Positions 32,474 through 51,148 of a stretch of DNA of 64,000 bases are shown piece by piece. The position numbers and the translations under genes were made by a program. The notes beneath the pieces are model-generated. The model had not been told where the DNA came from. It was given only the letters and a program-made list of their open reading frames with translations, and did no database searches. Source of the DNA: Terriglobia bacterium (GTDB lineage Bacteria > Acidobacteriota > Terriglobia > JAJPHL01 > JAPKYU01); the NCBI GenBank assembly GCA_965206645.1, contig CBDBKE010000004.1:32001-96000 (forward strand). The letters are read 5' to 3'. Position 1 is the stretch's first letter. The number at the start of each line of letters is the position of its first letter.

Positions 32474-34184
32474 TTAGCGAGAGTTGATCGTCCCGCGGCA
32501 CTTCGCTGATCCACATTTGCACTTAACCGTGACCTGATTGCGACTGAAATTATAGTCAACAGTTAGCTCCTCACCAATGTGGATAGCGCGCCTGCTCATG
32601 AAAAGAATACGTCCCTTAACGACCCACGAGCACAAATTTGGTTCACAACTGTGGTTGACGTACTCAGCCCCGCTGCCGGCGACTGAGCCGTCTATTGTCC
32701 AATAGTTGTTGCCAGCTCAACCGGTCGATGCAACACAAGCGTTAAATCGTTCTGCCGGAGTTTCAAACTCCAGCGTCTGACGGGGCCGTTCGTTCAGCTG
32801 ACGTGCCACCTTGTTCAGATGCGCCTGAGAGTGCACCGACAAGTCCGTTCCCTTGGGGAAGTACTGTCGGAGTAGACCGTTGGTGTTCTCATTCGAACCG
32901 CGCTGCCATGGACTCTGAGGATCACAGAAGTATACGTCAATGTCGGTCGCCAACGTGAACCGTCGATGCTCGGCGAGCTCCAGGCCTCGATCCCAAGTCA
33001 GAGATTTGTACAGTTCCGTCGGCAGCTTCTTCGCGTGCTTGATGAGCGCCGACACGACCGTCTCCGTTTTCTTGCTGGATACTTTCGTAAGCATCACGTA
33101 GCGCGTATGACGTTCGACCAGAGTCGCAATGTGGCTGTTCTTCGATCCGGACAGCAGATCGCCTTCCCAATGACCGGGCACGGCACGATCTTCGACCGAG
33201 GCCGGGCGCTCACGGATCGATACGATGTCGGTGATCTGTCCTCGTCCATGGCCTCTCAGACTTGCATGTCGGGATCGACGAATCGTCCGCTTTGACCGCA
33301 GATGCTGCATCAGCTCTGCCTTCAGCGCACCGCGGGCTTGAACAAACAGGCTGCGGTAGATGGTCTCGTGAGACACGTGATAGGACGGATCCTTCGGATA
33401 GGCTCGTTTCAGCCAGCTGGCGATCTGCTCAGGCGACCAGTTTATGCTGAGCTTTCTGGCCACTACCCGTCGTAGTTGTGGATGCTTGACCAGCTGACAC
33501 CGCTTCGGCCGGCGGGCCCTCTCCCCGGCTTGCTCATCGGCCTCCGCTGCTCGATAGTCATTATCGCCGCCATTCCGCCGAATCTCCCGGCTCACCGTCG
33601 ATGGTGAGCGACCCAGCAACCCGGCGATGGATCGTATCGATTGATGTGCCGCAATGCCTCGAGAGATCTCTTCGCGCTCCGACAACGTCAGTGCCCAACA
33701 TGAACGGCGTGGTGGCCGAGGACGGATGCCTCCGTACGGAGCAAGCTGATGGTAAACAGACGATGGCTGCTTACAAAACACTCGTCCAATCGACTTGAGC
33801 GACTCCCCTCGTTTCCACCGATCCCACACCTCCTCCAGTTCCGCCAGCGTGTAACCGCGACGAGCTCTTTGCTTCATCCGCATACACTCCACCTCCTCCT
33901 TTCAAGGCAAAGTGTTGCGTCGATGGGTTGAGACCACCGTTCAAAGCGAACAAATAAGAGGTGCGCCGCCGGACATGTCGTGACAACTGGTGCGGCGGAA
34001 ACTTTTCTCCAGTGTACTCTATGACCTTCCGTCGAGGTGGAATGGACTCCGTTGTGAAAACTCCCAGCCCATGGATCGGCGATTGTCGACTTACGAGGCG
34101 ATAACGTGAGAAGCGGCCATTGATTCTAGCGGTCCGAGTACGGCCATGACTTTCTCGCTTGTAAAGAGTGTTATTAGCCGACAT
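32474..34184 (-). pseudogene. SET-domain lysine methyltransferase split by IS30
   Basis: SPIHGLGVF...IEYTGE precede the IS; NHSCEPN, ELTVDY and post-SET CKCGSAKCRG follow it. Removing the IS plus 2 bp restores FALNNYWTIDG. Confidence 0.9.
32710..33938 (-). mobile_element. IS30-family element, transposase 32717-~33880
   Basis: GHWEGDL, TWDRGLE and PWQRGSNENTNGLLRQYFPKG motifs; IRs; 2-bp target duplication GT. Confidence 0.95.
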
Positions 34185-34237
34185 TTTAATTAGGGCAATG
34201 GACGTCGTAGGCACCTCGCCCCCCGGGGAATCCAAGG

Positions 34238-34271
34238 CACTTGTCCGGTTAGCGCGTTATACGTCCAAGTG
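34238..34271. other. 34-bp imperfect-palindromic site A (recombinase-site-like)
   Basis: CACTTGTCCGGTTA-GCGCGT-TATACGTCCAAGTG; same arms as 36591 and 50976 in reverse orientation. Confidence 0.6.
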
Positions 34272-34375
34272 GACTGCGTGGCAGCATAAGGAAGCACTAA
34301 CCGACTAGTAGGGACCTGCCACTGAATCTGAGGCGAACGTCTTCTGCTCAGAGACTTGGAGCGAGGCGAAGCAGA

Positions 34376-36016
34376 CTATTGCACGGCGATAGTGACCGTG
34401 TTGCTCGGGACGCCGTTTTGCAGCAGTAGCAGGGGCACAGACGAGCCCGCCTCAACATCTGCCGGGATTTCCACGTTCACCTGGTAGAGGCCTACAAAGC
34501 CCGGTGCCAGCCCGGCAAAGTGCACCGCTGCCGTCCGACCGCCCACCTGCGCCTCCACCGGCACCACCACTCGGGCCAGAGGCTCGGCTCCTGGCGCCGC
34601 CTGGCCCGAGGCCACCAGCGGATTGGTCGCACCCAGCCCGGTGCAGAACACCTGTATGATTTCACCCGCTGCAGCGGGCGCCGCGCTATCCACCAGCTGC
34701 CCCTGCGCGTCCAGGATCGCCCCCTGTCCGCTGCCTTGCTGGTTGGTGCTAAAAATCCCGGGCCGCGCCTCTGCCAGCGTGATTGTCGCCGGTACGGTGA
34801 CCGCCTCCGGGCCGCTGCCATCGCGCCGCGTCTGCACCACCACGTGCGGCCGGCTGTTGGGGGCTAACTCAAACGGGATTTGCGCGTTGATCTGCCCATC
34901 ACTGGTGAAGAACAGCGGTACCTCCACGCCTCCGATGTTCATGGTTGCACCACCCAGCGTGGTTTCTAGCGGCACCTGTGAAGCAAAACTCAGCCCGCTG
35001 GCCAGGTTGAGCCCAAACACCAACACAATGCTGCCTGGCGCCAGCGCTTCGCCCGACGCAAAGCTGGCCCCGTTCACTACGCCGCCGGCAAACAAGGCCG
35101 ACACCGTCGGGTTGGCTTGCACTTGGCCCTGCGCCTGTACCACCGCGTCGGCCAGCGGTGGCAGGCTGGCCCGCACCGTCACAGTCACCTGCGCCGCCGA
35201 GTTCACTGGCTGCCAGGTGCCCACGTAGATGCCGTTGCGCAGACTCGCCAGCACCAGCGGCGGGTCGCCGCTCGAGAAGCTGGCCACCACTGTCGCGGTC
35301 TTCACCGTGTCGCCGCAGTCGTTCACCACCTGCGCCTGGATCGGGGTGGGGAAGCTCACCGGCGAGGCGAAATTAATTCCCAACGTGCGATGCACCACCA
35401 GCAGTTGCTGCGGTGCACACTCCTGCTGCGCCTCGAAGTCGAAGGCTCTTGCTAACGTGTGCGGCTCGGATCCCCCGGCCGCTCCCGCAGTGCCTACCAC
35501 CAGGAACAGGATCCCCACCCTCTGTGAGGGGACTACCTGCGAGGGATTATCCAAGTCACTGAACTGGAATGCCAACTGGCCCCGGTAGGCACCGGGCGCA
35601 AGTTCACCCAGCGTGGGTTGCACGACTACTCTCCTGGGATCGTCAGCAGAAAGCGCCAAGTTGGGCGGCAGAATCTCCAACCAGTCGCCCCCCTCAAGGG
35701 CAAACAGGCCGCTGCGCGCTTCCAAGTTCCCGGGCGCGGCCGTACTCACGCGCACGCTTTGCGAGCCGGGCGAAAAGGTCCCGGCAGGAGTAGCAAAGAT
35801 CAGGTTTGTCGGCCGCACCACCACCCCCGGATGGCTTCCCGCTGGCAACACATCCAGGGTTACGGTCACAAGCTGGGGCGAGTTGTTCGCTCCCAATGCG
35901 TTCACGCGGATGAGCCCGCTGTATCGACCAGCGGGCAGCCCGCTCGGGTTCACCTCCGCCTCCACTAGAGGAACCTGGAGCGATGCCGCATCGCTGCTTC
36001 CGCTGGCTGGCGACAC
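34376..36016 (-). pseudogene. TIGR03437-type (Solibacter C-terminal domain) surface protein, 5'-truncated
   Basis: VVNGASF...APGSIV.VFG, QINAQIPFE, and GLAPGFVGLYQVNV...SNTVTIAVQ. An IS3 remnant replaces the 5' end. Confidence 0.8.
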
Positions 36017-36466
36017 GGTGCGGGTAGAGCGAAGGATGGGCAGTCAGGAGGTCATCGAGACGTTGTCGGACGTGATGCTGTGGAAGGGCATTCCAGAGCA
36101 CCTTCGCTCTGATAACGGGCCCGAGTTCATTGCCCAACAGCTGCGCCAGTGGCTGGCGAAACTAGGGACCGCGACGCTGTACATCGAACCGGGCAGCCCT
36201 TGGGAGAACGGATACTGTGAGAGTTTCAATGGGAAGCTGCGGGATGAATGCCTGAATGGAGAGATCTTTTACTCCTTGAAGGAGGCACAGGTGGTGGTGG
36301 AACAGTGGCGGGAGGAATACAACACGAGGCGGCCACACTCGGCGCTGGGCTATAGGCCCCCGGCGCCGGGGGCCTATAACCCTTTCCTACTACCAAAACC
36401 GGTTTCACGGCCCCAGGCTATGATGTAGACTCTCACTACTGTTGGTACAAAAAATCGGTCCGGTCA
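36017..36466 (+). mobile_element. IS3 remnant (3' orfB + right IR), diverged variant
   Basis: SDNGPEF...ESFNGKLRDE; ends CCGGTCA. Confidence 0.9.
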
Positions 36467-36590
36467 GTTGCCCCCCTGGAAAGCGATTGAGCAAGGCTAC
36501 ATCCCCCAAGGGTCGCATGTCCACTTCGCCGGGGAACAGCAATGCCGGATAGGTCCCCACTAACGGGCTAGTGTTTATCAATCCCGGTGT

Positions 36591-36624
36591 CACTTGGACG
36601 TATAGTCGGCTATCCGGACAAGTG
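36591..36624. other. 34-bp site B
   Basis: CACTTGGACGTATA-GTCGGC-TATCCGGACAAGTG, identical to 50976-51009. Confidence 0.6.
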
Positions 36625-36675
36625 ACCCTCTACGCCCGCCAGGGTAGTGGGTCAGTTTCCGATAAGCGCGTTATA

Positions 36676-37139
36676 CCCGGAATTTCCTTTTTGGCCTTCC
36701 GGCGATTGAAAATATACACGCATCTGCGTCCCAGCGAGTACAATGTTTTCTCCGCGAGGACCATCGGCTCCGAGCGTCCCTTTCGGGGTCCCCTAAAACC
36801 GTCCGATCAGCATCCAAACCCAGCTTTTTCAGACAACTCTCCATACCTGGGGGATAGCGGCATCGTTTTCTTGTGTGCCGTAGCCCAGGCTATCCCGACG
36901 GGAGTGCCAATCCATCGATCCGCCCCAGCATGCTGGCAAACAGCCGTCGGGTCAAATGGCCCTCGGCCAGCAGGAGCCAGTAGTACCGTGCGTGTTTTGC
37001 GAGCCGTCCTCCGGTTTTCACCAGCCGCTGCTGGAGGCTCGTCAAGGACCATTTCTCGATTCTCTGTGGCTGCACTAGCCGTCGCCACAGGTTGCCCAGG
37101 TTGTAGGCGATGATCGTCAGCCAAAGCCGTACCTCGTTA
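36676..37139 (-). mobile_element. IS1380-family 3' remnant with terminal IR
   Basis: NEVRLWLTIIAYNLGNLWRRL...KTGGRLAKHARYYWLLLAE; the end CCCGGAATTTCCTTTTTG matches 41728. Confidence 0.85.
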
Positions 37140-38389
37140 TGACCAGACCGATTTTTTGTACCAACCGTAGTGAGAGTTTACATCGCAGCCTGGGGCTGTG
37201 AAACTGGTTTCAGTGGCAGGGGAGGGCTATAGGCCCCCGGTGCCGGGGGCCTATAGCCGAGCGCCGAGTGCGGCCGCACCGTGTTGTATTGCACCCTCCA
37301 CTGTTCAATCACCACCTGTGCCTCCTTCAACGAGTAGAAGATCTCTCCATTCAGGCATTCGTCCCGCAGCTTCCCATTGAAACTCTCGCAGTACCCGTTC
37401 TCCCAGGGACTGCCCGGTTCGATGTACAGTGTCCCGGTCCCTAGATTTGCCAACCACTGGCGCAGTTGTTTGGCGATGAACTCGGGACCATTGTCGGATC
37501 GAATCTGTTCCGGTATCCCTCGCCACAACATCACGTCCGACAACGCCTCAATGATTTGTTGGCTGCCCATCCTCCGCTCCACCCGGATCGCCAGGCATTC
37601 CCGCGTGTACTCATCCAGCAAGGTCAGCAGCCGCAGCGTTCTCCCCTCGTGCGTTCTGGCACTCATGAAGTCGTAGCTCCACACGTGGTTCGGTCGCTCC
37701 GGCCTCAGTCGTACACAGGAACCGTCGTTCAGCCACAGCCGTCCTCGCGGCCTTTGTTTTTGCGGCACTTTCAGCCCTTCCCGCCGCCAAATCCGCTGCA
37801 CCCGGTCCTTGCCCACTTCCCAGCCCGCACTCCGCAGCAACGCTGTGATCCTCCGGTAGCCATATCGCCCGTACTTCGCTCCCAGGGCAATGATCGCTCG
37901 GGTCAGAGCATCCTCGTCCACCCGATGAATCGGCTCGTATCGTTGTGTCCCTCGCCATTGCCCCAGCAGCCGGCAGGCATGCCGTTCCGACAACCCGTGT
38001 TGCTCCCACGCACGCTCCACCGCACAACGCCGCCGCTCAGGGCTCAGAAGTTTCCCTGTGCCACATCCCGCAGCACCTGCTTCTCCAGAGAAAGCTCCGC
38101 TACCAACCGCTTCAGCCGCGTGTTTTCCTTCTCCAACTCCTTTAGCCGTTTTGCCTGCACCACCTTCAGCCCGCCGTATTCCTTCCGCCACCGGTAGTAG
38201 GTTTGGGTGTGGATTCCAGCTTCTTTGCAGGCTTGGGGCGCAGTCTTCCCGTTCCCCATCTGCACTTCTATCTGCCGTAGCACCGCTACAATCTGCTCCG
38301 GCTTGTAACTCCTTGTCGGCATGACCTCACTTCCTCCTCAAGTGGATTCTCTCTCTTTCCACTTGGTACAAAAAGTGCCGGTCAGGTCA
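37140..38389 (-). mobile_element. IS3-family element, full length
   Basis: Near-identical to 28931-30180; no target duplication. Confidence 0.97.
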
Positions 38390-39526
38390 AACCCTGCCTC
38401 ATTTCCAGAGGAGGCTTTCGCTCAGTTTGCCCCCCGGCCCCAGGGAGCCGAAGACGAGCTATCGGAGTCGGATCAACAGTTGTCCCCTCTGGATGCCATT
38501 GCCGGCCTGTCGGCAATTCAGGACAGGTTGCAGCAACTGGAACGGAAAGATTGGCGAGTCTGGTCAGCGGCTCTCGCGGTGCTGCTGCTGATGGGGACCG
38601 TGCTGGCACTCTCCTCGGCGTCCTTCTGGACACAGTTTTCCATCGTGCTGCTTTTCAGCGCCTATGCCGTGGTCCAGCAGATGGTGAGCAGACGAATCCG
38701 GCATGAGCTGTCCCGGCAGGTTGATTCGATGTTGCTGTCCCAGCAGATTGACTCGGTCTTCAACCTGAAATTCCGGACCGAGGATTCTCACCAGCTGGCG
38801 ATGCTGGATCCCGTCACCGGACTGTACAACCGCCGCTTCCTCGAGGAGCACCTATCTACCGAGCTGGCCCGATCCCAGAGGGAGGAAAATTCACTCACCG
38901 TGGTGGCGCTGCATCTGAAGGACTTCGCGCAGATCATCGACTCCTACGGACGCTCGGCCGGCGATCTGGTGCTGAAGCATTTTGGCGCACAACTCAAGAA
39001 AGCGATCCGAAACTCGGATTTTGCCGCGCGCACAGGCCAGGACGAGTTTATGGTGCTGTTCCCCGAAGGTAGACCCGAGCAGGTGCCGGCCACGCTTCTC
39101 CGCATGGCGGATCTGGAAGTGGACTTTCGTGCGGAGAAGATTCCAGTCAGCTTTGTTTCTGGGTGGACCGCCTATCAACCTGGCGACTCCCCCGGCCAGC
39201 TCTTGGATCGTGCCGAGCAGGCGGTTCTTGCCGACAATCAAACCGGCCAGGCCGAGCAGGAGGCCGTAGAGGCCCCAAGCGCAGTTTCTCCCGCTGAAGA
39301 AGATGGAGTCGCGGAGGCGCCCGGCATGCAGGGTGGCCCACAACCTGAACCAACTGCTGACGCTGGGCGACGGGTACGCCGAGCTAGCGCCAGATCAGAT
39401 AAGCCGGGCCGCTCCGCTACGCGGCGACGTGGAGTAATACCTGCGGCCGCTCCGGTAGGTGAATTCGCTGCTCTGGCGGCGGCTGCTCTAAAGCCGGGGC
39501 CCAGCGATGAACCCCAAGGTGCTTGA
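38390..39526 (+). pseudogene. Membrane GGDEF-domain protein, degenerate and probably 5'-truncated by IS3
   Basis: Two TM helices; DPVTGLYNRR; the signature reads RTGQDEF and the metal-binding DxD reads HLKDF. Confidence 0.75.
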
Positions 39527-39641
39527 CCTGCATGGCCTGTTGACCAAATTAACGGTCATCCGCGCCGCTGCTGGTCCAAAAGTACCGGGCAGAATGTAAC
39601 TACTGGCCTATTGGAGGCTTGGGGCGGCTGCGCTTAACTAG

Positions 39642-40067
39642 GTGCTGTATATGGAAGACAAGTTCGTAGGGCGAGTTGGTAGAAGCGACATTCTCCGAGC
39701 TATTACCCTGCTCGCTTTGCTCGCTTGCATAGTAACCATAGGCGTGTCGGCGGGCTGGCTCTATCCCCGAAAAGCTATCACCATCGAAAAGTTAGAGCGC
39801 AGCTTCGAGGCGACCCGTCATTATCTCGAAAACGGAGGAAACGCCTTCATCCGCTTCTTGAACCAGCCATTACCAATCCGCGTGGCTAGTCCGGCGCTTG
39901 AGAATGCGGAATCTTCTCAAGATGCGCGTTTAGAAATCCGCCCCCTGGAACCCTTCTCCAGCGGCGACACCAAGAAGCAGAACAAACGCAGGCATCTCGC
40001 GATTGGCGGAGCGTTATTGCTGATTCTCATTGTGCTTGACCGGTGGAGAAACAGAAGTCTGAACTGA
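39642..40067 (+). CDS. Hypothetical protein with N- and C-terminal TM helices
   Basis: Two hydrophobic segments and a basic C-terminal tail. Confidence 0.55.
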   Translation: MLYMEDKFVGRVGRSDILRAITLLALLACIVTIGVSAGWLYPRKAITIEKLERSFEATRHYLENGGNAFIRFLNQPLPIRVASPALENAESSQDARLEIRPLEPFSSGDTKKQNKRRHLAIGGALLLILIVLDRWRNRSLN

Positions 40068-40214
40068 AGGCCAGGTCCTCGGCTGCACATAACTCCGTCA
40101 GAATTCCTTCTCCTATTCTTACTGCACACCTGGCTGGTCATCGTACCCCCGCCGATGACCGGTCACATGTCACCGAATACAAGACAGCAAAGATTCACTG
40201 ACGAGCTGGCCGCT

Positions 40215-41653
40215 GAGAGTGTCTCACCTTTAGTTGAAAGTTGAGCGGCGGTTCGCTGACCTGGTTCCGTAGAATCGGGTTGGGAAACTTTCTGGAAAGG
40301 GGAACCGCCGTGCAGAGAAGCTACCACATCCTAGGCCGGAGCGATAGCCGAAGCTCCCGCAAACTGGCTGCCTACCTGGCTCGCCACGGGCAGTTTCTGC
40401 TGCCCTGGGTGGAGTTGATCGAACAATCGCGGTTAGCCGTCGACGAGCTGATCGACGTGGTGGGTAGGGCGGCGATTGAAGCGGTGCTGGAGTTGTCGGC
40501 CGCGCAGGTGGCCGGTCCACGCCGTCAGGGCCGGCGGCGCCGTGGGGTGGGCTGGTATGGGCGCCAGCGGGGACGGGTGCGCCTGAAGGAGAGAAAGCTG
40601 GCCGTGCACAGGCCACGGCTCCGGCGGCCAGGCCGGGGAGCGGGGAAAGAAGTTCCCCTCCCGGCCTACGAAGCCATGCAGGAGGGCGAGGGTCTGGGGG
40701 CCCGGATGTTGGATATCTTGCTGCGGGGCGTCTCGACCCGGCAGTACCAGCGGGTGTTGCCGGAGATGGCGGACACCGTGGGTGTGTCGCGCTCCACGGT
40801 CAGCCGGGAAACGATGGAGGCTGCCGCAGCCGAGTTAGAACGTCTGTTGAACCGCCGCTTCGAGGAAGTAGAGTTGCTGATCCTCTACATCGACGGGATG
40901 GTGTTTGGCGACCATCACGTGATTGCGGCTGTGGGCGTGGATGCGGAAGGGCACAAGCACGTGCTGGGGATTCAGCAGGGGGCTACGGAGAACGCCGCGG
41001 CCGTCCAGGACTTGCTGGAAGGTTTAGTGCGGCGAGGGGTGCAGCCGGCCCAGAAACGGCTGTTTGTGATCGACGGCTCGAAGGCCTTGCGGGCGGCGAT
41101 CCGCGCCGTGTTCGGGGCCGAGCAGCCGGTGCAGCGCTGCCGCGCCCACAAGTTGCGCAACGTCCTGGACCGGTTGCCGGAGCCAGAGCGGGACCAGGTG
41201 CGGGCGGCGATGCGGGCCGCCTGGCGGTTGGATCCGAAGACCGGCAGGGCCAAGCTGGAGAAGTTGGCCCAATGGTTGGAGCGAGATTGTCCGGCCGCGG
41301 CGGCCAGCTTACGGGAGGGTCTGGAGGAATGTTTCACCATCAACCGGCTGGGGCTTCCGGCTTCGCTACATCGCTGTCTGGCCACCACCAATCTCATCGA
41401 GAGTCCGCAGGCGGGAGTGAGGTTGCGAACTCGCCGGGTGTGCCGCTGGCGGGATGCGGCCATGGTCCAGCGCTGGGTCGCCTCCAGCTTCCTGGCCACG
41501 GAGAAAAACTTCCGCCGCCTGATGGGGTACCAGGACCTGTGGATGTTGAAAGCGATCCTCGAAGGATCAAAGTCGGCCACTCGACGGGAGGTGGCGTAGT
41601 ATGATGGCTCCGAACCGCCGCTACGAACTTTCAACTGAGTTCAGGACACCCTC
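40215..41653 (+). mobile_element. IS256-family element (second copy)
   Basis: Near-identical to 7017-8455 in opposite orientation; flanks do not form a duplication. Confidence 0.95.
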
Positions 41654-41727
41654 GTGCCCGCTTGGGTACAAGAACTGTCCCGTCTACGGCACTGATTGCA
41701 TCCTCTCGCACCTCGCAGCCCTATTAA

Positions 41728-42844
41728 CCCGGATTTCCTTTTTGAAAACGCAGCGGCAACCTTCAGCTAACCTCCAACGTCAATATTGATACTGGTTGCA
41801 GCATCAATCGGAGCGTTCGGAGGCGTAAACCCAATGGGTGAGAGCGGAAAACAGGGATTTCAGCTGTCGTTCAACCGATTTCTGCGAGTCGGATTTCAGG
41901 GATCACGGGTGACTTCCAATGGTGGACTGATTCTGGTCCGGGAGTTGGATGAGCGTCTGGGATTCAGCGAACTCATTGACGAGCACCTGACCGATTCGCG
42001 GGCAAACAATGCTCGGTTTTCTTTCGCGGACTTGCTGCGGCAGTCGGTCTACAGTCGCCTAGCTGGATACGAGGATGTAAATGATGCCGAGCGGCTGTCG
42101 CAAGACCCGACCTTTCGGCTGATTGGTTCAGAGAAGACTTGGGAACGAGGCGCGGCGCTGACCTCCAGGTTGCAAACTTTCGAGACGGAGATGCTGGCGA
42201 AGGTGGAGAACTTCGTCGGGTTAGCCCGGATCAACCGGGAACTGATCGGAAAGGTCGAAGCCTTCCAGTGGCACTACCGAGCGGTGCTGGATATGGACTC
42301 AACCGAGATTCCGGTCTGCGGGGAGCAGGAACAGAGCGCCTACAACGGACACTTCGAGTCCACTTGCTATCACCCGCTGCTTTTGTTCAATCGAGACGGC
42401 GACTGTCTGGCGGCCCAGGTCCGTCCGGGCAACGTGCACAGTGCCGAGGGTTGGGAGAAACTCCTGTTACCCGAGATTGAGCGCCAGCAAAGAATGGGAA
42501 AAGAGATTGCGTTTCGGGCGGACGCGGCCTTTGCCAAGCCGGAGGTGTACGAGGCATTGGAGGAACGGGGTGTGAAGTACGCAATTCGCATCCCGGCCAA
42601 CGATATTCTGCAGCGAGACATCGAAGAGCTACTGAAACGCCCCGTGGGAAGGCCCACCAAGAAACCGCTGGTCGAGTACAAGGGGTTCTTGTACCAGGCA
42701 GCCGGTTGGAAGACGGCTCGAAGGGTGGTGGCGAAAGTAGAGCATCATTCCGGGGAGTTGTTCCCGCGAGTGGGGTTCATTGTAACGAATCTGACGCTGC
42801 CGAATCGGGCGGTGGTGCGGTTCTATAACAAGCGCGGCACCGCA
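41728..42844 (+). mobile_element. IS1380-family 5' part (transposase from ATG 41834) cut by IS3
   Basis: TSNGGLIL, LDMDSTE, CYHPL, RADAAF and FYNKRGTA motifs; left IR CCCGGATTTCCTTTTTG. Confidence 0.9.
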
Positions 42845-44095
42845 TGACCTGACCGGCACTTTTTGTACCAAGTGGAAAGAGAGAGAATCCACTTGAGGAG
42901 GAAGTGAGGTCATGCCGACAAGGAGTTACAAGCCGGAGCAGATTGTAGCGGTGCTACGGCAGATAGAAGTGCAGATGGGGAACGGGAAGACTGCGCCCCA
43001 AGCCTGCAAAGAAGCTGGAATCCACACCCAAACCTACTACCGGTGGCGGAAGGAATACGGCGGGCTGAAGGTGGTGCAGGCAAAACGGCTAAAGGAGTTG
43101 GAGAAGGAAAACACGCGGCTGAAGCGGTTGGTAGCGGAGCTTTCTCTGGAGAAGCAGGTACTGCGGGATGTGGCACAGGGAAACTTCTGAGCCCTGAGCG
43201 GCGGCGTTGTGCGGTGGAGCGTGCGTGGGAGCAACACGGGTTGTCGGAACGGCCTGCCTGCCGGCTGCTGGGGCAATGGCGAGGGACACAACGATACGAG
43301 CCGATTCATCGGGTGGACGAGGATGCTCTGACCCGAGCGATCATTGCCCTGGGAGCGAAGTACGGGCGATATGGCTACCGGAGGATCACAGCGTTGCTGC
43401 GGAGTGCGGGCTGGGAAGTGGGCAAGGACCGGGTGCAGCGGATTTGGCGGCGGGAAGGGCTGAGAGTGCCGCAAAAACAAAGGCCGCGAGGACGGCTGTG
43501 GCTGAACGACGGTTCCTGTGTACGACTGAGGCCGGAGCGACCGAACCACGTGTGGAGCTACGACTTCATGAGTGCCAGAACGCACGAGGGGAGAACGCTG
43601 CGGCTGCTGACCTTGCTGGATGAGTACACGCGGGAATGCCTGGCGATCCGGGTGGAGCGGAGAATGGGCAGCCAACAAATCATTGAGGCGTTGTCGGACG
43701 TGATGTTGTGGCGAGGGATACCGGAACAGATTCGATCCGACAATGGTCCCGAGTTCATCGCCAAACAACTGCGCCAGTGGTTGGCAAATCTAGGGACCGG
43801 GACACTGTACATCGAACCGGGCAGTCCCTGGGAGAACGGGTACTGCGAGAGTTTCAATGGGAAGCTGCGGGACGAATGCCTGAATGGAGAGATCTTCTAC
43901 TCGTTGAAGGAGGCACAGGTGGTGATTGAACAGTGGAGGGTGCAATACAACACGGTGCGGCCGCACTCGGCGCTCGGCTATAGGCCCCCGGCGCCGGGGG
44001 CCTATAGCCCTCCCCTGCCACTGAAACCAGGTTTCACAGCCCCAGGCTGCGATGTGAACTCTCACTACGGTTGGTACAAAAAATCGGTCTGGTCA
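42845..44095 (+). mobile_element. IS3-family element, full length (+1 nt near orfB end)
   Basis: Near-identical to 28931-30180. Confidence 0.97.
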
Positions 44096-44303
44096 ATAAC
44101 AGTGCCTAGTTAAGCGGAGCCGCAGCAAATGGCCAATAGCCCCGCAGTTACATGCGGGCCGCTGTTCCCGGCGCCGGTCTTTGCTTGGTACCTTCGGACT
44201 AGCGGGCGCGCGCCCAGCAGGTGGAAACTAGGGCTGGCTGGTGGAGGGTCTCCACCATGCGAGCAGGGCTACGCCACCGGGAGTGTAGGTTAGGGCTGGC
44301 GCG

Positions 44304-45585
44304 GGTGGTCTCAACCCATCGACGCAACACTTTGCCTTGAAAGGAGGAGGTGGAGTGTATGCGGATGAAGCAAAGAGCTCGTCGCGGTGCCTTGAAAGGA
44401 GGAGGTGGAGTGTATGCGGATAGCTCGTCGCGGTTACACTGGCGTCGCTGGCGGAACTGGAGGAGGTGTGGGATCGGTGGAAACGAGGGGAGTCGCTCAA
44501 GTCGATTGGACGAGTGTTTTGTAAGCAGCCATCGTCTGTTTACCATCAGCTTGCTCCGTACGGAGGCATCCGTCCTCGGCCACCACGCCGTTCATGTTGG
44601 GCACTGACGTTGTCGGAGCGCGAAGAGATCTCTCGAGGCATTGCGGCACATCAATCGATACGATCCATCGCCGGGTTGCTGGGTCGCTCACCATCGACGG
44701 TGAGCCGGGAGATTCGGCGGAATGGCGGCGATAATGACTATCGAGCAGCGGAGGCCGATGAGCAAGCCGGGGAGAGGGCCCGCCGGCCGAAGCGGTGTCA
44801 GCTGGTCAAGCATCCACAACTACGACGGGTAGTGGCCAGAAAGCTCAGCATAAACTGGTCGCCTGAGCAGATCGCCAGCTGGCTGAAACGAGCCTATCCG
44901 AAGGATCCGTCCTATCACGTGTCTCACGAGACCATCTACCGCAGCCTGTTTGTTCAAGCCCGCGGTGCGCTGAAGGCAGAGCTGATGCAGCATCTGCGGT
45001 CAAAGCGGACGATTCGTCGATCCCGACATGCAAGTCTGAGAGGCCATGGACGAGGACAGATCACCGACATCGTATCGATCCGTGAGCGCCCGGCCTCGGT
45101 CGAAGATCGTGCCGTGCCCGGTCATTGGGAAGGCGATCTGCTGTCCGGATCGAAGAACAGCCACATTGCGACTCTGGTCGAACGTCATACGCGCTACGTG
45201 ATGCTTACGAAAGTATCCAGCAAGAAAACGGAGACGGTCGTGTCGGCGCTCATCAAGCACGCGAAGAAGCTGCCGACGGAACTGTACAAATCTCTGACTT
45301 GGGATCGAGGCCTGGAGCTCGCCGAGCATCGACGGTTCACGTTGGCGACCGACATTGACGTATACTTCTGTGATCCTCAGAGTCCATGGCAGCGCGGTTC
45401 GAATGAGAACACCAACGGTCTACTCCGACAGTACTTCCCCAAGGGAACGGACTTGTCGGTGCACTCTCAGGCGCATCTGAACAAGGTGGCACGTCAGCTG
45501 AACGAACGGCCCCGTCAGACGCTGGAGTTTGAAACTCCGGCAGAACGATTTAACGCTTGTGTTGCATCGACCGGTTGAGCTGGCA
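44304..45585 (+). mobile_element. IS30-family element, second copy with rearranged 5' end (ORF 44466-45578)
   Basis: Same transposase sequence as 32717; local duplication at 44334-44450. Confidence 0.93.
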
Positions 45586-45831
45586 GTTCAAAGCGAACAA
45601 ATAAGAGGTGCGCCGCCGGACATGTCGTGACAACTGGTGCGGCGGAAACTTTTCTCCAGTGTACTCTATGACCTTCCGTCGAGGTGGAATGGACTCCGTT
45701 GTGAAAACTCCCAGCCCATGGATCGGCGATCGTCGACTTACGAGGCGATAACGTGAGAAGCGGCCATTGATTCTGGCGGTCCGAGTACGGCCATGACTTT
45801 CTCGCTTGTAAAGAGTGTTATTAGCCGACAT
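45586..45831 (-). pseudogene. Second copy of the SET-domain gene 5' half
   Basis: 45586-45889 matches 33939-34242 with a few differences; the 3' half is absent. Confidence 0.85.
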
Positions 45832-45972
45832 TTTAATTAGGGCAATGGACGTCGTAGGTACCTCGCCCCCCAGGGGAATCCAGGCACTTCTTAAATCGCT
45901 TGTGAGATGGCGCGAGGGAGGATACAATCACCCACGATAGCCAAACACATTTGATGCGAAGGAGGATTCGGC

Positions 45973-47529
45973 ATGGCCACTGCCACAACTGAAATTCGGC
46001 CCCTCACTGCTGCCGCATTCACTACGCCCGACAAGTTTACCCAGTTCTGCAACAACGGCGGTAAGCCGCTGGGTGGAATCATTGGCGGCGAAAGGGTTTC
46101 CGGATCGATGAATGCGACGTTCCAGACAACCGACCCCGGGTCGCAGGAACTGCTCGCCACAGTATGCGAGATGGGCGAAGCGGAAGTCGCGCTGGCCGTC
46201 GACGCTGCCAGCCGAGCATTCCATGGCGACCTTAGGAAAGGCTGGAGAGACGTCGACATCGAGGAACGCATTGGGTTGGTGAACAAACTGGTTGAGTTGT
46301 GCGACCGAGACCGAGACGTTTTGCTTGCCTGCGAAATTCGGGACGGTGGCAAGGTGTCAGCATTGGCTGAAGGCGACTTCACACAGATTCGTGCGTCTGC
46401 CGAGTACTTTTGCGGAGTTGCTCGGAAGATCGCGATGGGTGACGGGCCGGCGGTGCAGGTCGCCGACGGCATCAAAGGCTTTGCCCATCGCGAACCTTGG
46501 GGAGTTGTCGCTGGAATCATCCCCTGGAACTATCCGATCGTGCTGACATCGTGGTTCATGTTCCCGGCTTTGCTGGCCGGGAATACGGTTCTATTCAAGC
46601 CAGCGGAAAACACCCCGCTTTCGGCTCTCTACATCGCCAAGCTGGCCGAAGAAGCGGGCTTCCCGCCAGGCGTCATCAATGTGTTGCCAGGTCGCGGCGA
46701 AATCACCGGCCAGTGCATCGCCGAACACCCGGGCATCCGATATATCTCGTTCACCGGTTCGCCGGGCGTTGGACAGGCTATTCTTCGTACCTGCGACCGA
46801 CATGGCACGCGGATGAAGCGTGAAATGGGCGGCAACGGCGCTGCGATCGTGCTGGACGATGTGGATCCCGAAGTCGTCGGCCGTTTGATTGGTCGATATA
46901 CCAACCAGCACTACGGCCAGACTTGCTGCACGATTCACCGAGTGTATGTCCACAGTAAGATTGCCGATGGTTTCGTCGACGCGCAACGTACCTTCTTCGA
47001 AAACTTGAAGATCGGCTACCAAGCCGAGGAAGGAACACAATTGGGCGCGGTGGTCAACCCGACGCAACGCCGGCGCATCCTGCAGGCACAACAAGAAACC
47101 GTCGCTCGTGGTGGCCAGGCGATCCTTCCAGGTGGCGTGGCGGAAGTGACCGGTCGAGACGGTTTCTATTTGAAACCCGCATTGTATCGCACGACGCCAG
47201 GAGTCAACTGCAATCCCGTGGAGGTATTCCACACCTTCGCAACCGTATGCCCGGTGAACTCCCCCGAGGAGGCGTTGGAACTGGCCAACAGTTCGCCCTA
47301 CGGACTCGGAGCGAGCGTTTGGACCAAAGACATTGACCGCGGTGTTGCCTTGGCCAAGCAGTTCCGCGACGGCACATGTCAAGTCAACTGCCACAACTCG
47401 ATCGCTTACGGTCTACCTTACGGTGGCCAGGGAATTTCGGGCGGTCCCGGCGGCGGTGTCAACTGCGAAGATACTTTGCTTGACTACACCCAAGTCAAAG
47501 CGGTCTACGTGGCCGAGTATCCAGGTTAG
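45973..47529 (+). CDS. Aldehyde dehydrogenase family protein
   Basis: IIPWNYP, FKPAENTP, FTGS, catalytic EMGG and GQTC, YGLGASVWT. Confidence 0.95.
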   Translation: MATATTEIRPLTAAAFTTPDKFTQFCNNGGKPLGGIIGGERVSGSMNATFQTTDPGSQELLATVCEMGEAEVALAVDAASRAFHGDLRKGWRDVDIEERIGLVNKLVELCDRDRDVLLACEIRDGGKVSALAEGDFTQIRASAEYFCGVARKIAMGDGPAVQVADGIKGFAHREPWGVVAGIIPWNYPIVLTSWFMFPALLAGNTVLFKPAENTPLSALYIAKLAEEAGFPPGVINVLPGRGEITGQCIAEHPGIRYISFTGSPGVGQAILRTCDRHGTRMKREMGGNGAAIVLDDVDPEVVGRLIGRYTNQHYGQTCCTIHRVYVHSKIADGFVDAQRTFFENLKIGYQAEEGTQLGAVVNPTQRRRILQAQQETVARGGQAILPGGVAEVTGRDGFYLKPALYRTTPGVNCNPVEVFHTFATVCPVNSPEEALELANSSPYGLGASVWTKDIDRGVALAKQFRDGTCQVNCHNSIAYGLPYGGQGISGGPGGGVNCEDTLLDYTQVKAVYVAEYPG

Positions 47530-47810
47530 TCATCCAGCCAAGACTTCGGCATGCCGGTCGCCAGCCTCAATAGCTGGTAAGTTGCTATCCGGAAAAGTGA
47601 TCTCCCGTCATACAGGGCAAGACAGGCTACCGCAGTTTTTATACCGACGAGACAAACATCATCCGGTTCACGAGCGAAGACCGCCCCGCTACCGCCGACG
47701 ACCCACCACTGTGATGGTGTGACGAGATGGGTCTGCGATCGGACCCGCCGTAAGTTGGTTTGATCTCTATGTCGTTTGTGATATTGAAGGACCGACAAAG
47801 GAGCGCATGA

Positions 47811-48050
47811 ATGCCCAGACTAGCTAGGATACTGCGTCAGCTGAAAGCCCAGAGACAGGTAGCTCAAGCTGAAGCAGACAAGCTCGACCGAGCCATCGAG
47901 GCTCTGACCGAAGGACAGAGAGGTTCCGGACGACCACCTGGTAGAAAGCGTCGGGGCTTCTCTGCTGCTGCTCGCAAGAAGATGTCTGCCGCTCAAAGAG
48001 CCCGCTGGTCCAAGATCAAAGCCCGTAAGAAAGCAGCGAAGACCGTCTGA
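47811..48050 (+). CDS. Small basic coiled-coil protein, putative nucleoid-associated
   Basis: AAGGAG RBS; N-terminal coiled coil, GRPPGRKRR, SAAARKKMSAAQRARW. Confidence 0.75.
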   Translation: MPRLARILRQLKAQRQVAQAEADKLDRAIEALTEGQRGSGRPPGRKRRGFSAAARKKMSAAQRARWSKIKARKKAAKTV

Positions 48051-48370
48051 GTGAGGGAGAACGCCACGTCCCTCAAAGCGCCATCACTCTGCCAACACCA
48101 GCCCTCTAATAGCGGATCGTCTGCGAATCGCCGGAGGGATTGCTGGCGGGTTCACGAAAGGAAGGCGGGAGTCCCATTTCGACGCGCACGAATCAGCAGC
48201 GAATCCGCGTCCAACTTGCACTAGCTGCCGCCCCACCTCGGGGGCCGTAGGCGGGACGGAGGGTTCCTCCTATGTGGGGTCTTGACTGGATCGCATCGTC
48301 TAATGCCGTCTGGTGATAGCACACCGCTACGGCAGCTACCAGTGCCACCATAACGGCACCACGTCGCGTC

Positions 48371-49822
48371 TTATTCTTCCGCGATGCTGTAGAGATGTCG
48401 CCCGCCGCGCAGCAGCAGCTCGCGGCCGACGGCGGCCGGGGAGGCGGTGAAGCTGTCGTCGAGCTGGTTTAGAGCGAGCGCTTTGGGGTTGTCCTCATGG
48501 GTAAGAACTATGGTGGCGCCGTTGCGGTCCGTGACGTACACTCGGCCGGCTGCTGCGACGGGCGAGGCGAACACCGTGCGCAGGCCAGTGAGTCGGATTG
48601 GGCCGGGCTGATCTTCTCCCGTCCGGGCATCGACACGCGTGAGGACACTCTGAAAATGGGCGATGAAGTACAACGTCTCTCCGTAAAGCAACGGCGAGGG
48701 CACATACGGTGCCCCTCGCGTGCGGACCCACGCCACCTGCCCGGTCTCGGTGATGTCACCCTTGGCACCGTCGAGGCGAATGGCAAGCATGCCCGGCCTG
48801 TCGTAGGTGCTGCCGGCATAGACCATGCCGCCTCCCGCGGCGGGCGAGGCAACCACGTTCTCCACCGAGAGCCCCTTGCCCTCCCAGATCATCGCACCAG
48901 TGGCTAGGTCGTATCCGCGCACGCGCTGCGAACCGCTGATGATGACCTGCGGCCGGCCGCCGTGCTCGACCACGATGGGCGTGGTCCACGAACTGCTCGC
49001 CTCGCGCTCGGTCCGCCAACGCTCCTGCCCCGTCCGCTTGTCGAACGCGACGACAAATGACGGGCCTTCGTGATCCCAGTTGAGGATTAGTGTTTCGCCG
49101 TACAGCGCCGGGGAACTGCCCTCGCCATGGCCGTGCAGTGTGTGCATTCGGCCAAGGTCGGCTTGCCACTTCAACTTACCGTCGAAGTCCAGGCAGTACA
49201 GGCCGTAGGAACTGAAGGAAGCAAACAGAAGTTTGCCGTCGGTCACAGGGGAAGCGGACGCCAGGCTCGAGGTGAAATGCCCGCCCTCGTGCGGCAGGGC
49301 CTTGCGCACAGTCCGTTCCCAGAGGACGCTTCCATCGCGGCGGTCAAGCGCCATGACGATGAACTTGACGCGACGCGTGATGGGATTTTCGTCGTGGCCG
49401 CCGGGACGGCCGCTGTATCTAGGCGACAGGGCGTCACCGGAAGGAACGGCGGCAGTGACGAAGACACGGTCGCCCCACACGATCGGTGTCGAATGGCCTT
49501 TGCCCGGCAGCTCGACCTTCCACCGGATGTTCTTCGTCTCGCTCCATTCGATTGGCGGATCGGCGTGCGGCGCGACGCCCGTGGCCAGCGGCCCACGCCA
49601 CTGCTGCCAGTTGTGCATCGCATCGGTCAAAACCTCGGGCGGCGAAGGGGTCAGGGGCGCCTCGACCGGTACGACACCGATTCGGTTTTGCGGCTCGGGC
49701 GGCGACAATTCACGCGGGCGATTCACCCATTCCGCCACGAGGTTGATCCCCGCCATGACCACAACGATCAGCAGGATCACCATAGCCGGCGAGGATGTAC
49801 GTTGTCTTTGTCTTTCTATCAT
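48371..49822 (-). CDS. PQQ-like/BamB-like beta-propeller protein
   Basis: WQQWRGP, GHSTPIVWGDRVF and repeated SSP...G...W blades; N-terminal TM anchor. Confidence 0.88.
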   Translation of the reverse strand: MIERQRQRTSSPAMVILLIVVVMAGINLVAEWVNRPRELSPPEPQNRIGVVPVEAPLTPSPPEVLTDAMHNWQQWRGPLATGVAPHADPPIEWSETKNIRWKVELPGKGHSTPIVWGDRVFVTAAVPSGDALSPRYSGRPGGHDENPITRRVKFIVMALDRRDGSVLWERTVRKALPHEGGHFTSSLASASPVTDGKLLFASFSSYGLYCLDFDGKLKWQADLGRMHTLHGHGEGSSPALYGETLILNWDHEGPSFVVAFDKRTGQERWRTEREASSSWTTPIVVEHGGRPQVIISGSQRVRGYDLATGAMIWEGKGLSVENVVASPAAGGGMVYAGSTYDRPGMLAIRLDGAKGDITETGQVAWVRTRGAPYVPSPLLYGETLYFIAHFQSVLTRVDARTGEDQPGPIRLTGLRTVFASPVAAAGRVYVTDRNGATIVLTHEDNPKALALNQLDDSFTASPAAVGRELLLRGGRHLYSIAEE

Positions 49823-50126
49823 GCGTTACCTGCCCTTCTCCGCCAGCAGACTGTCGATGACCGCATCGGTGGGGTCGAGTTAAATATGAAAATTTGAAAC
49901 ACACCAGCGGTGGTTTTGCGAAGCGTACTCATGCCCCGGCGAAGGTGTTGACATGCGGAAATTGCAGTTGAGACCCCACTGGGACAACAAACAACAGGGT
50001 TAGGCTCACTCTGGGTAAGTAAGCAATACGAGGAGAGCGTCTCTTCGACTCTTCCATTTCTCTTCGGCCTCCTCTGCAGGGCTTTTCAATGCGGTTCCGC
50101 GGTGGGGGCGGCAACTCCACACGAAT

Positions 50127-50561
50127 TCACTTTTTGGCTAGGTTTTCATAGCGATCTTCAACAGCACTCTCCCTGGTCGTCGGAAGACCACGGGGAGCCC
50201 AGCCCGGGAAAGTTAACTGCCCCATCTCATCGGTTTCTCCACCGAATCCGCCGCGCATATCTAGGATGTTGGCGAACCCGGCCTGTAGCAAGACCTCGGC
50301 CGCTTTCATGGAGCGGCCTCCTTTCTGGCAACCAGTAATACATTTCACGTCCTTGCCAACATTGGCCTCCACGATCTCCACAAATCGGGGATTGAACTGC
50401 ATGCGCCCGAACGGGTCCGGTTCCACGACGGGAACGTTTTTGGCCCCCGGCACGTGTCCCGCCTCAAACTCCGGGACGGTTCGCACATCCAGGTAGATGT
50501 ATCCAGTATTGGAATCGAGCAGCTCCTTGGCTTGTTCCGGTGTAATGCGTTTGATTTCCAT
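50127..50561 (-). CDS. Rhodanese-like protein (Cys form)
   Basis: YLDVRT..EF..GHVPGA, CQKGGRS, MRGGF. Confidence 0.9.
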   Translation of the reverse strand: MEIKRITPEQAKELLDSNTGYIYLDVRTVPEFEAGHVPGAKNVPVVEPDPFGRMQFNPRFVEIVEANVGKDVKCITGCQKGGRSMKAAEVLLQAGFANILDMRGGFGGETDEMGQLTFPGWAPRGLPTTRESAVEDRYENLAKK

Positions 50562-50975
50562 GCTTGCTCCCTTGCCTATTTGTTCAATTAAACACTGGGT
50601 GACGGTAGGTCTTCACAGCCTCACCCAGAATTCGATGGGATGAACCTTCGCTTTCTCATTCGGTTTCTACTTCTACATCGTTTCCGTTACCCGAACGGAA
50701 AAACTCTTACACTCGGCTCAAGATTCTACGCCAGCCACCCTGTCGGCTCAAGCTCAGATGACCATGGCCTCCTTGTAAATACGGCCAATAAACTAGGCCA
50801 CAGCACCTCCGCGAACTCTTCGCGTCTTGGGTGCTGGCAAAGACCACCTCTCGCCGGAAATGCCGGATAGACCCAGCCTATTCCCCCTGTTCTTTCCGGT
50901 CCGGCTGCTCCCGAATGGTCGCCGACTCGGAAAGTCCCTCAGCGCCTTGCGGCTCCTCCTCTGACTGTCAGCGGT

Positions 50976-51009
50976 CACTTGGACGTATAGTCGGCTATCC
51001 GGACAAGTG
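50976..51009. other. 34-bp site C
   Basis: Identical to site B; companion motif at 51046-51071. Confidence 0.6.
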
Positions 51010-51148
51010 CCTACCTTGAGCAGCGTCACTCAATAGCTGAGAGCAGATAGGCCCCGACTAGTCGGTTAGGATTTACTTATCCTTTCAGGAAGGAACTTCC
51101 AAACCCCCCATGTGTCAGGACCTCCCCGAACCCGAAGGTGCCTAAGGC

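Follow-up and report, generated by a model that had tools for sequence, protein, structure and literature searches.

A probable family of short intergenic palindromes at changes of gene order: recurring 34-base sites of soil Acidobacteriota

The sites and their surroundings

The Acidobacteriota are among the commonest bacteria of soil and the dynamics of their genomes have been little studied. The DNA considered here (the window, 64,000 nucleotides) comes from a Terriglobia bacterium whose genome, G000, comprises 4.4 Mb in four contigs with a G+C content of 61%; the window corresponds to C4:32001-96000. It carries recurring 34-base sites, each made up of an inner arm of 14 bases, a centre of 6 and an outer arm of 14, which fall into two classes according to the centre (class 1, TA-GTCGGC-TA; class 2, TA-ACGCGC-TA) and are accompanied by a second palindrome, the companion. 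These sites appear to belong to a repeat family of short palindromes that lies between genes across soil Acidobacteriota and marks changes of gene order. An earlier note on the window had taken them for a site-specific cassette or inversion system with its recombinase encoded elsewhere.

What that note described in the sequence was confirmed, with some qualifications. The three sites match the 34-mer pattern without a single mismatch, against an expectation of 0.00 from 100 shuffles of the sequence, and the companion is present at the three places claimed (3 matches against 0.12 expected, with 0 of 100 shuffles reaching 3) at distances of 26, 20 and 40 bp from the sites, in agreement with the proposed limit of 40 bp. 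The companion centres, ACGGGC or GTCGGT, do resemble the two site classes. The fourth, variant site, said to be cut by an IS1380-like insertion sequence (IS), lies where it was described (Table 1), and the duplication of a SET-like segment does end in site A, five bases inside the outer arm: the segment at 33939-34242 recurs with 96% identity at 45586-45889, where the copy reads ...CACTT and then passes into unrelated sequence. The arms had been called inverted; their symmetry is partial, and the outer arm varies across the wider family. The sites had also been placed between genes at cargo boundaries, and they are strictly intergenic, but the ‘cargo boundaries’ of the window are largely the work of nested IS3, IS30, IS256 and IS1380 elements. 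Transposase genes of these four types crowd the window between 30 and 54 kb, several of them nested.

The stretch between the first two sites (34238-36624; segment 34272-36590), which might pass for a ‘cassette’, is not a natural unit because a 450-bp IS3 remnant (36016-36470) truncates its 546-amino-acid gene, with the break at 36016-36020, and a 3671-nt contig of one public sequencing run (X4) carries the gene on past this point. The C-terminal part of the encoded protein has paralogous matches in all three genomes of the same genus that were compared, and the region presumably resembles the Solibacter-type C-terminal domain TIGR03437. Short Logan contigs from four public runs contain joints such as that from 34272 to 36590 (side 22). 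These carry no information on excision because other copies of the repeat, for example the 104-bp doublet described below, match them.

The IS load of G000 as a whole is extreme. A 1.25-kb IS3-type element matches very many places, the IS30 type is found at about 20 and IS1380-type ends at about 27, and many of the elements are nested or truncated. IS-related positions in the window are 29129-30181, 32710-33938, 37140-38390, 42845-44095, 44304-45585 and 51965-53220. Two IS1380-type copies have inserted into class-2 sites at almost identical points (after GCGCGTTAT), one at C4:1177193 and one at the variant site of the window. Targeting of the sites by IS1380 was considered; only 2 of the 30 listed IS ends fall in a site, both of them after a TTAT-type target that is used by other copies, and the pattern was read as coincidence.

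Table 1. Sites, companions and associated features of the window
Position	Strand	Feature	Remarks
34214..34237	-	Small G+C hairpin, GGATTCCCC-GGGGGGCGAGG type	Follows class-2 sites several times; loop UUCG-like elsewhere
34238..34271	-	Class-2 34-mer, site A: inner arm CACTTGGACGTATA, centre ACGCGC, outer arm TAACCGGACAAGTG	Inner arm toward 3' end of upstream gene
34285..34320 (approximate limits; match 34297-34317)	-	Companion hairpin, b type, centre GTCGGT	Between stop of 546-aa gene (34376) and site A
34376..36016	-	3' part of cargo gene, secreted-type repeat protein, no Pfam match	5' end cut by IS3 remnant
36548..36583 (approximate limits; match 36551-36571)	+	Companion hairpin, a type, centre ACGGGC	Pattern match
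36591..36624	+	Class-1 34-mer, centre GTCGGC	First half of X-type doublet
36625..36652	+	Linker of X-type doublet, 28 nt, with own small hairpin ACCCTCTAC...GTAGTGGGT	
36653..36676	-	Variant class-2 site, centre ACGCGC, outer arm CGGAAACTGA	Second half of doublet; cut after GCGCGTTATAC; IS1380-like element from ~36677
45885..45889	+	CACTT, five-base remnant of site outer arm	End of second SET-like copy (45586-45889)
50860..50975	+	Conserved type A flank	Ahead of about half of G000 class-1 sites
50976..51009	+	Class-1 34-mer, centre GTCGGC	Between peptidase M24 gene (stop 51149) and rhodanese gene (start 50561)
51010..51081	+	Type Y linker, then companion hairpin, b type	Companion match 51049-51069, 1 mismatch

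Copy number and mosaic arrangement

Genome-wide counts were controlled with the reversed pattern. In G000 the 34-mer gives 20 matches at up to three mismatches and the inner arm gives 31 at up to one, with none for either control. A 12-mer inner-arm pattern at up to one mismatch gives 42 matches against 7, and about 35 of the 42 were judged to be members of the family, counting a third form with the outer arm ...CGGAAACTGA. The outer arm at 2 mismatches gives 84 matches against 77, which is noise. The companion is a 36-bp palindrome, GATAGGTCCCCACTA-N6-TAGTGTTTACCTATC, with 67 matches in G000 counted without a control. It has the same two centre types as the site, one being roughly the reverse complement of the other (TAGYCSGYTA). 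The conserved part of the unit consists of the inner arm together with the first four bases of the centre (CACTTGGAYGTATA followed by GTCG or ACGC), the outer arm being variable (TWWYCGGA...).

The commonest form is an inverted doublet in which a class-1 site is followed by a reversed class-2 site, giving an imperfect hairpin of 83-104 nt. Orientation in the window alternates and class follows strand, as the earlier note had seen, but the rule that holds across the genome is a different one: the partner of class 1 in a doublet is always class 2, and the two are mutually inverted. When the 15 class-1 sites of G000 were sorted by eye, two main kinds of sequence were found upstream, type A (a flank of ~115 bp) and type B (companion a plus 13 bp). 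Two kinds were also found downstream: in type X a small hairpin of 28 nt is followed by a variant class-2 site in reverse, and in type Y a linker is followed by companion b or, at two places, a 36-nt linker by a reversed class-2 site, which makes a doublet of 104 bp. These flanks occur in the combinations A+X (3 sites), A+Y (4), B+X (3) and B+Y (2), with 3 others, and the flank type switches precisely at the ends of the 34-mer. The order around class-2 sites is companion b, site, small UUCG-type hairpin, companion a. At least four module arrangements exist in G000. Variants within the site are linked across flank types, the inner-arm variant GGCCG occurring with the outer-arm variant TTACC in 4 of 4 cases.

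Spread and neighbouring genes

Among 401 genomes sampled from the phylum, six, including G000, have the strict 34-mer at up to three mismatches, mostly in one or two copies. A pattern free of the outer arm was found in 17 stretches of species genomes, whose titles name Terriglobia, Acidobacteriota, Acidiferrales, Acidoferrum, Thermoanaerobaculia and one Dehalococcoidia metagenome-assembled genome; soil metagenomes yielded at least 120 contigs with it, and viral contigs none. Two further genomes of the same genus, G001 and G003, are rich in units, and G001 was compared with G000 as its sister genome. G139, from a second family of the phylum, belongs to a genus with the same class-2 unit in many copies and with flanks of its own. 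Conservation was read from 80 fetched metagenome contigs, nearly all of which have GTCG or ACGC as the first four centre bases; the apparently perfect conservation of the inner arm in this set is partly a product of selection from a large and diverse family. Many metagenome copies have, by eye, a reversed and more degenerate partner 5-36 nt away. A partner at up to three mismatches was found at 8 of 82 loci (2 control matches), with further degenerate partners seen by eye, and the share of doublets is poorly measured by this count. Some contigs carry one copy per 1-3 kb, or several per 10 kb. A conserved flank of ~32 nt (GTGGCGCATTTTGCATTTTYCCCMACAAATTC) stands directly 5' of class-1 sites in many otherwise unrelated metagenome contigs (L114, L124, L130, L133, L141, L158, L171, L189 and L029) and is another mosaic module, in other lineages.

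The genomic context was determined with crude gene calls for 86 distinct loci outside G000, and searches of neighbouring genes were run on 97 loci. The units are intergenic at 83 of the 86 loci, and outside the genus they are mostly solitary copies between ordinary genes. Among the 118 nearest open reading frames (ORFs) of the 86 loci, 97 Pfam families are represented, each by at most 2 ORFs; the 25 families listed are ordinary metabolic and signalling ones. The biggest cluster of neighbours consists of protein kinases, at 7 of the 97 loci. The neighbouring genes give no sign of an autonomous mobile element. In G000 every row judged to be a true family member is intergenic, and the genes on either side of 45 intergenic rows, again by crude gene calls, are in tandem in 21 cases, divergent in 13 and convergent in 11, so that no orientation is favoured.

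The earlier note had also considered that the sites might be transcription-factor operators at a fixed distance from gene starts. This is excluded because the neighbouring gene ends are mixed (62 3' ends and 53 5' ends around the 86 loci) and their distances scattered. An operator or promoter was likewise rejected for want of a fixed distance or side to genes and, by eye, of a sigma-70-like spacing at the TATAGT/TATAAC hexamers.

Folding and conservation of the arms

Folding was computed for single-stranded DNA and expressed as z against shuffles. Doublets fold far better than shuffled sequence (z of -4.2 to -5.7), with a bubble where the two centres oppose each other. A lone class-1 site reaches a z of -3.3 and its hairpin contains two 2x2 GA/GA internal loops, whereas a lone class-2 site (z of -0.4) shows no fold beyond that of shuffles, and the same is true of single companions. 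The inner stem of the class-1 hairpin is not kept among the metagenome variants. Although the arms agree at 10 of 13-14 positions in G000, the outer arm is free after CGGA across the 80 metagenome copies, with CAAGTG, CATGTG, AAACTGA, AAAGTGG and others. The conserved block comprises the inner arm and continues into the centre, with the variable bases located off-centre; what is conserved of the arms is their sequence rather than their pairing.

Gene content at the sites

The earlier note had raised the possibility that gene content switches at the spacer. Switches at the sites do recur, but most breakpoints lie at module ends and not at the spacer.

The best case is a slot at G001:C10:899905-901942 and G000:C2:777147-778437, where colinear flanks of 95-97% identity enclose different cargo, one genome having an FHA-domain gene with a 179-aa ORF and the other an ORF of 378 aa. 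At the right-hand junction the genomes are homologous from base 16 of the class-1 site onwards, the inner arm being absent from G000. A class-2 site and companion b are present in both genomes on the left, where by eye identity drops inwards from the site centre: all 14 bases of the outer arm are identical, and divergence is clearly higher in the inner arm and the companion. A second case is an array at G001:C2:222300-225781, in which three doublets in a single orientation alternate with two cargos. The same two cargos, one of which includes a gene for an MFS transporter, are separated by 1.4 Mb in G000, where both are next to modules.

An rpoD-like gene provides a third case. It lies in a 3.4-kb segment between two 104-bp doublets (C4:1195672-1199313) that recurs at C1:360700-364070 with 96.5% identity, homology stopping two bases past the site. 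G001 holds the segment with a different linker, and a copy of the gene free of sites is present in all three genomes compared. The gene encodes a full-length primary-type sigma-70 factor (regions 1.2, 2, 3 and 4) and has three copies in G000 that are 91-96% identical, at C4:1195900-1197660 (L038:1900-3660), C1:362296-364070 and C3:544690-546541; two are in site-bounded segments and one is cut by IS3. Upstream of mnmG a site is common to G000 and G001, and in G003, G002 and G005 the upstream neighbour differs and the site is missing there; in G003 the site goes with the other gene.

A lone EthD gene of G139, located between a DUF899 gene and a LeuA-like gene, has a class-1 site on one side and a class-2 site on the other. 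Six relatives from the same genus have no sites at the LeuA locus, although the other flank is not syntenic either. The surrounding 15 kb (G139:C1:1246500-1262000; L273, L272 and L066) look like a variable island of small accessory genes (MBL-fold, DUF4386, DUF2306, RibD_C, DUF899 and EthD). The stretch also encodes IS1380 and IS3 transposases and a tyrosine recombinase of 332 aa, and several of the repeat units lie in it.

Other breakpoints fall at module ends or five bases inside the outer arm; at one site (#8 of the G001 survey, G001:C2:255342) the break is ambiguous, lying at base 26 or earlier. Comparison of the site between the rhodanese and peptidase genes of the window with orthologous loci was uninformative: in G003 an IS1380 occupies the break, and the flanks of the peptidase copies are unrelated. 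In all five cargo genes that were inspected, a site comes after the 3' end and presents its inner arm to the gene.

Search for a partner enzyme

The earlier note had placed a recombinase for the sites outside the window, and no evidence of one was obtained. None stands out among the 118 neighbouring ORFs of the 86 loci, neither recombinases nor transposases being among the 25 commonest families, and no match to the integron integrase (TIGR02249) exceeds the cut-off in G000, G001, G003 or G139 (best score 87 against 265 bits). G000 has 36 tyrosine-recombinase matches; among those checked against the sites, only the one at C4:2131856 has a site within a few kb, a doublet at a distance of 3.3 kb. 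The integrases near the module-rich regions of G000 and G139 were compared and are unrelated beyond the catalytic motif. Hybrid sites of two outer or two inner arms, the expected traces of excision or integration, are absent from the four genomes except for one inner-inner-like site in G003; the other matches to such patterns are normal sites with one inner and one outer arm. This sole palindromic variant with two inner arms is at G003:C2:1087058-1087091 and has 2 mismatches to the pattern.

The note had suggested a comparison with the chromosomal dif site. One dif-like candidate was found with a partial consensus, at C4:400161 on the minus strand (...GATAA-GAGATA-TTATGTCAA...); it is intergenic between divergent genes and ~90 kb from the cumulative GC-skew maximum of its contig. 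There is no likeness between it and the 34-mer.

With regard to transposases, no TnpB was found. G000 has two Y1 (IS200-like) genes, at C4:115725-116336 (~20 kb past the end of the window) and C4:709934-710560. A link to a REP-associated tyrosine transposase (RAYT; REP, repetitive extragenic palindrome) was rejected, as each Y1 gene is flanked by its own G+C-rich hairpins (GAGCCGCGAGCGTGAGCGAGCGG type and GGCACGGCTTCAGCCGTGCC type), which are separate REP-like families, and not by the units described here. One of the two fits the ‘class 3’ Y1 type known from Acidobacteria, as outlined in PMC6006769.

Interpretation

The analysis shows the anatomy of unit and doublet, the copy numbers, the strictly intergenic location and the spread through many Acidobacteriota, with no autonomous gene standing out near the sites. 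On balance we lean towards the view that the sites and the companion form an orphan mosaic family of REPs in the Acidobacteriota, resembling bacterial interspersed mosaic elements (BIMEs) and REP doublets forming hairpins (REPINs). The basic unit is of ~34 bp, and two units of unlike class, inverted and with their outer arms facing, make up the imperfect hairpin of 83-104 nt; in this genus the doublets are combined with the companion palindrome and a few fixed linkers. The units may be, or may have been, spread as DNA by a putative enzyme acting in trans. Today they would serve mainly as portable homology and fragile palindromes for duplication, cargo replacement and IS insertion, and these two properties would account for the changes of gene content found at the units in a genus so rich in IS elements. 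REP-type repeats are known as joints of duplications and as targets of IS elements. The units may be compared with the Y and Z REPs of E. coli and with the linker motifs of BIMEs.

Several observations weigh against this interpretation. Depletion between divergent genes has been described for REPs, and it is not seen for the sites in G000 (13 of the 45 intergenic rows). By eye there are no compensating changes between the outer arms of doublet partners; judged from the sequences, pairing in the hairpin appears weakly constrained, and sequence-specific recognition of each arm would fit equally well. No bare unit or doublet was found to be polymorphic for clean presence or absence, and no target duplication was found at the junctions read. 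No cognate transposase was found for the units: Y1 transposases have 0 matches in G001 and G003, both of which carry many units, and there is no Y1 homologue within 3 kb of the 97 loci. Finally, gene-sized segments bounded by inner arms differ between the sister genomes, and one slot breaks at both centres, as a site-specific recombinase would predict.

That a site-specific recombinase encoded elsewhere acts on the sites and drives a cassette system is the strongest of the alternatives and is nonetheless unlikely. Inner arms would face a single-gene cargo, and the incompatible centres (GTCG.. and ACGC..) would recombine like with like, giving cassette exchange by double crossover; alternatively the doublet would be folded as single-stranded DNA with its centre unpaired, in the manner of attC or CTX-attP, which are the precedents for recombination of folded single strands. 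The case for such a system rests mainly on the best slot, with both breaks at site centres, on the array of three doublets in G001 and on the constancy with which inner arms face the cargo, as after the 3' ends of the five cargo genes inspected. The bracketed EthD gene of G139, with six relatives that lack the sites at this locus, is also consistent with it. So is the rpoD-like paralogue in its site-bounded segment, where a rare inner-arm variant, CACATGG, is found in both G000 and G001 and the outer arms (TTACC against TATCC) and linkers differ. However, a recombinase would be expected to break at the centre everywhere, and the remaining joints are at module ends or inside the outer arm; even at the best slot the G000 side lacks the inner arm at the right junction. 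Crossover at the centre would also break the linkage of inner and outer variants that holds in 4 of 4 cases, and hybrid sites are almost wanting. The solitary units between ordinary genes outside the genus and the failure of any recombinase to stand out near the sites, with integrases of G000 and G139 that are unrelated and no integron integrase in any of four genomes, point the same way, and homologous recombination between repeats can produce the same picture. The more specific claim that the two centre classes are heterospecific sites, between which an enzyme acting in trans swaps single-gene cassettes (rpoD-like, MFS, FHA and EthD) from slot to slot, is less likely still. Each swap would take one crossover in a class-2 centre and another in a class-1 centre, and the whole would amount to a natural recombinase-mediated cassette exchange, or to an attC-like system without an integrase, in soil Acidobacteriota. 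What stands of the earlier note's cassette or inversion system is that the sites recur strictly between genes as a family, have two centre classes and a companion related to them, and lie where homology or synteny ends; no evidence of a recombinase was found.

The two other readings are weaker than that of a recombinase. It is improbable that the units are ends or derivatives of transposable elements, either of a miniature inverted-repeat transposable element (MITE) with companion and site as terminal inverted repeats (TIRs) of a ~200-bp palindromic composite, or of a non-autonomous IS200/IS605-like element with one hairpin per end on the same strand. Composites of the first kind (companion a, class 1, 28-nt linker, reversed class 2, reversed companion b) do occur: C2:496522 and C4:2128369 have one each, and the window holds a truncated one. 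The second kind would agree with the centres at both cargo ends, which on one strand appear to be of one type (GYCGSY), as with IS200/IS605-like hairpins. G001 has a site at ~125 bp from an integrase gene whose 5' end is missing; G000 has this gene intact. Yet at least four arrangements exist and not one fixed element, no TnpB was found, G001 and G003 have no Y1 gene, and the ends of a known IS or MITE, which the earlier note had allowed for, are not what was found: at 97 loci there is no parent element with a transposase between such ends, and the junctions read have no target-site duplication.

It is very improbable that the units act as RNA (by stabilising 3' ends, by terminating transcription or as regulatory motifs), or are bound by a chromosomal protein, and are kept for such a function and not as selfish DNA: the UUCG-type hairpin after class-2 sites, the two GA/GA loops of the class-1 hairpin, arms conserved as sequence more than as pairs and the position after the 3' ends of five cargo genes would suit this, but Rfam 15 at gathering scores finds two tRNAs alone in the window and, at E of up to 1, nothing at two repeat loci, 3' and 5' gene ends are about as frequent (62 and 53) with no fixed distance, orientation to the flanking genes is inconsistent and the neighbours share no function.

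If the units are an orphan REP- or BIME-like family, they add a phylum-wide example with two unusual traits, namely centre types common to two palindromes and a link to the reshuffling of single accessory genes. They could mark variable slots in metagenome-assembled genomes and could serve as bait for a protein that recognises them. Were the minority view of a recombinase true, the sites would represent a new way of moving gene cassettes.

Comparison with known systems

No description of this repeat family was found in full-text searches, the acidobacterial TIR sequences of PMC3733652 and the figures and files of PMC6006769 not having been compared. Among known recombination sites, lox sites share with the units a length of 34 bp; read as 13-8-13, the arms of the units agree at 10 of 13 positions, and the two centre classes would not cross-recombine. 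Unlike lox sites, the units have no Cre-like gene beside any of them and their conserved block is off-symmetric, extending from the inner arm into the centre. Acinetobacter pdif and Xer dif sites also have two unlike arms, a 6-bp centre and alternating orientation at the borders of gene modules. These differ from the present units, which are 14-6-14 and not 11-6-11, lack a conserved outer arm and are chromosomal and not plasmid-borne, and whose borders consist of two sites and a linker (hetero-doublets with extra motifs) instead of the one shared site of pdif.

A parallel is also provided by the attC sites of integrons and by attC clusters that lack an integrase; attC sites are imperfect palindromes of about 57-141 bp and have complementary end boxes with the R''/R' consensus RYYYAAC/GTTRRRY. 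Like attC, the doublets, at 83-104 bp, are imperfect palindromes with two inverted halves and unpaired centres that stand after the 3' ends of single genes, the G001 array with its three doublets in one orientation separates two cargos, and the class-2 inner arm (GTATAAC/GTTATAC) agrees with the consensus at 6 of 7 positions. In contrast to attC, pairing extends 9 bp beyond the R-like boxes, the four genomes have no integron integrase, copies outside the genus are mostly solitary between housekeeping genes, and neither cargo orientation nor array structure is uniform.

The units differ from enterobacterial REP/BIME elements and Pseudomonas REPINs in lacking a terminal unpaired GTAG or CGTC tag (CGTC is present only inside the inner arm), in having no RAYT gene flanked by them, in their greater length (34 bp), in a second class that hardly folds alone, in sharing their two centre types with an unrelated palindrome, the companion, and in their host phylum, the Acidobacteriota. 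The sections of PMC3733652 that bear on this describe GTAG- and CGTC-tagged REP superfamilies with an unpaired tag at one end, and for Acidobacteria they list TIR families alone, beside TIRYT (Y1) genes. The same sections report REP-like repeats from many phyla, pairing of two kinds of REP as hetero-dimers, clusters of REPs with repeats of other families, and orphan families without a transposase. With REP, BIME and REPIN families the units share the features of short imperfect palindromes (20-40 bp in REPs; here class 1 folds as a single unit and class 2 does not) that are strictly extragenic and present in tens to hundreds of copies, that usually form inverted hetero-dimers folding into a larger hairpin, that are arranged in a mosaic with other motifs and lie at the joints of rearrangements, and that in some families have no dedicated transposase.

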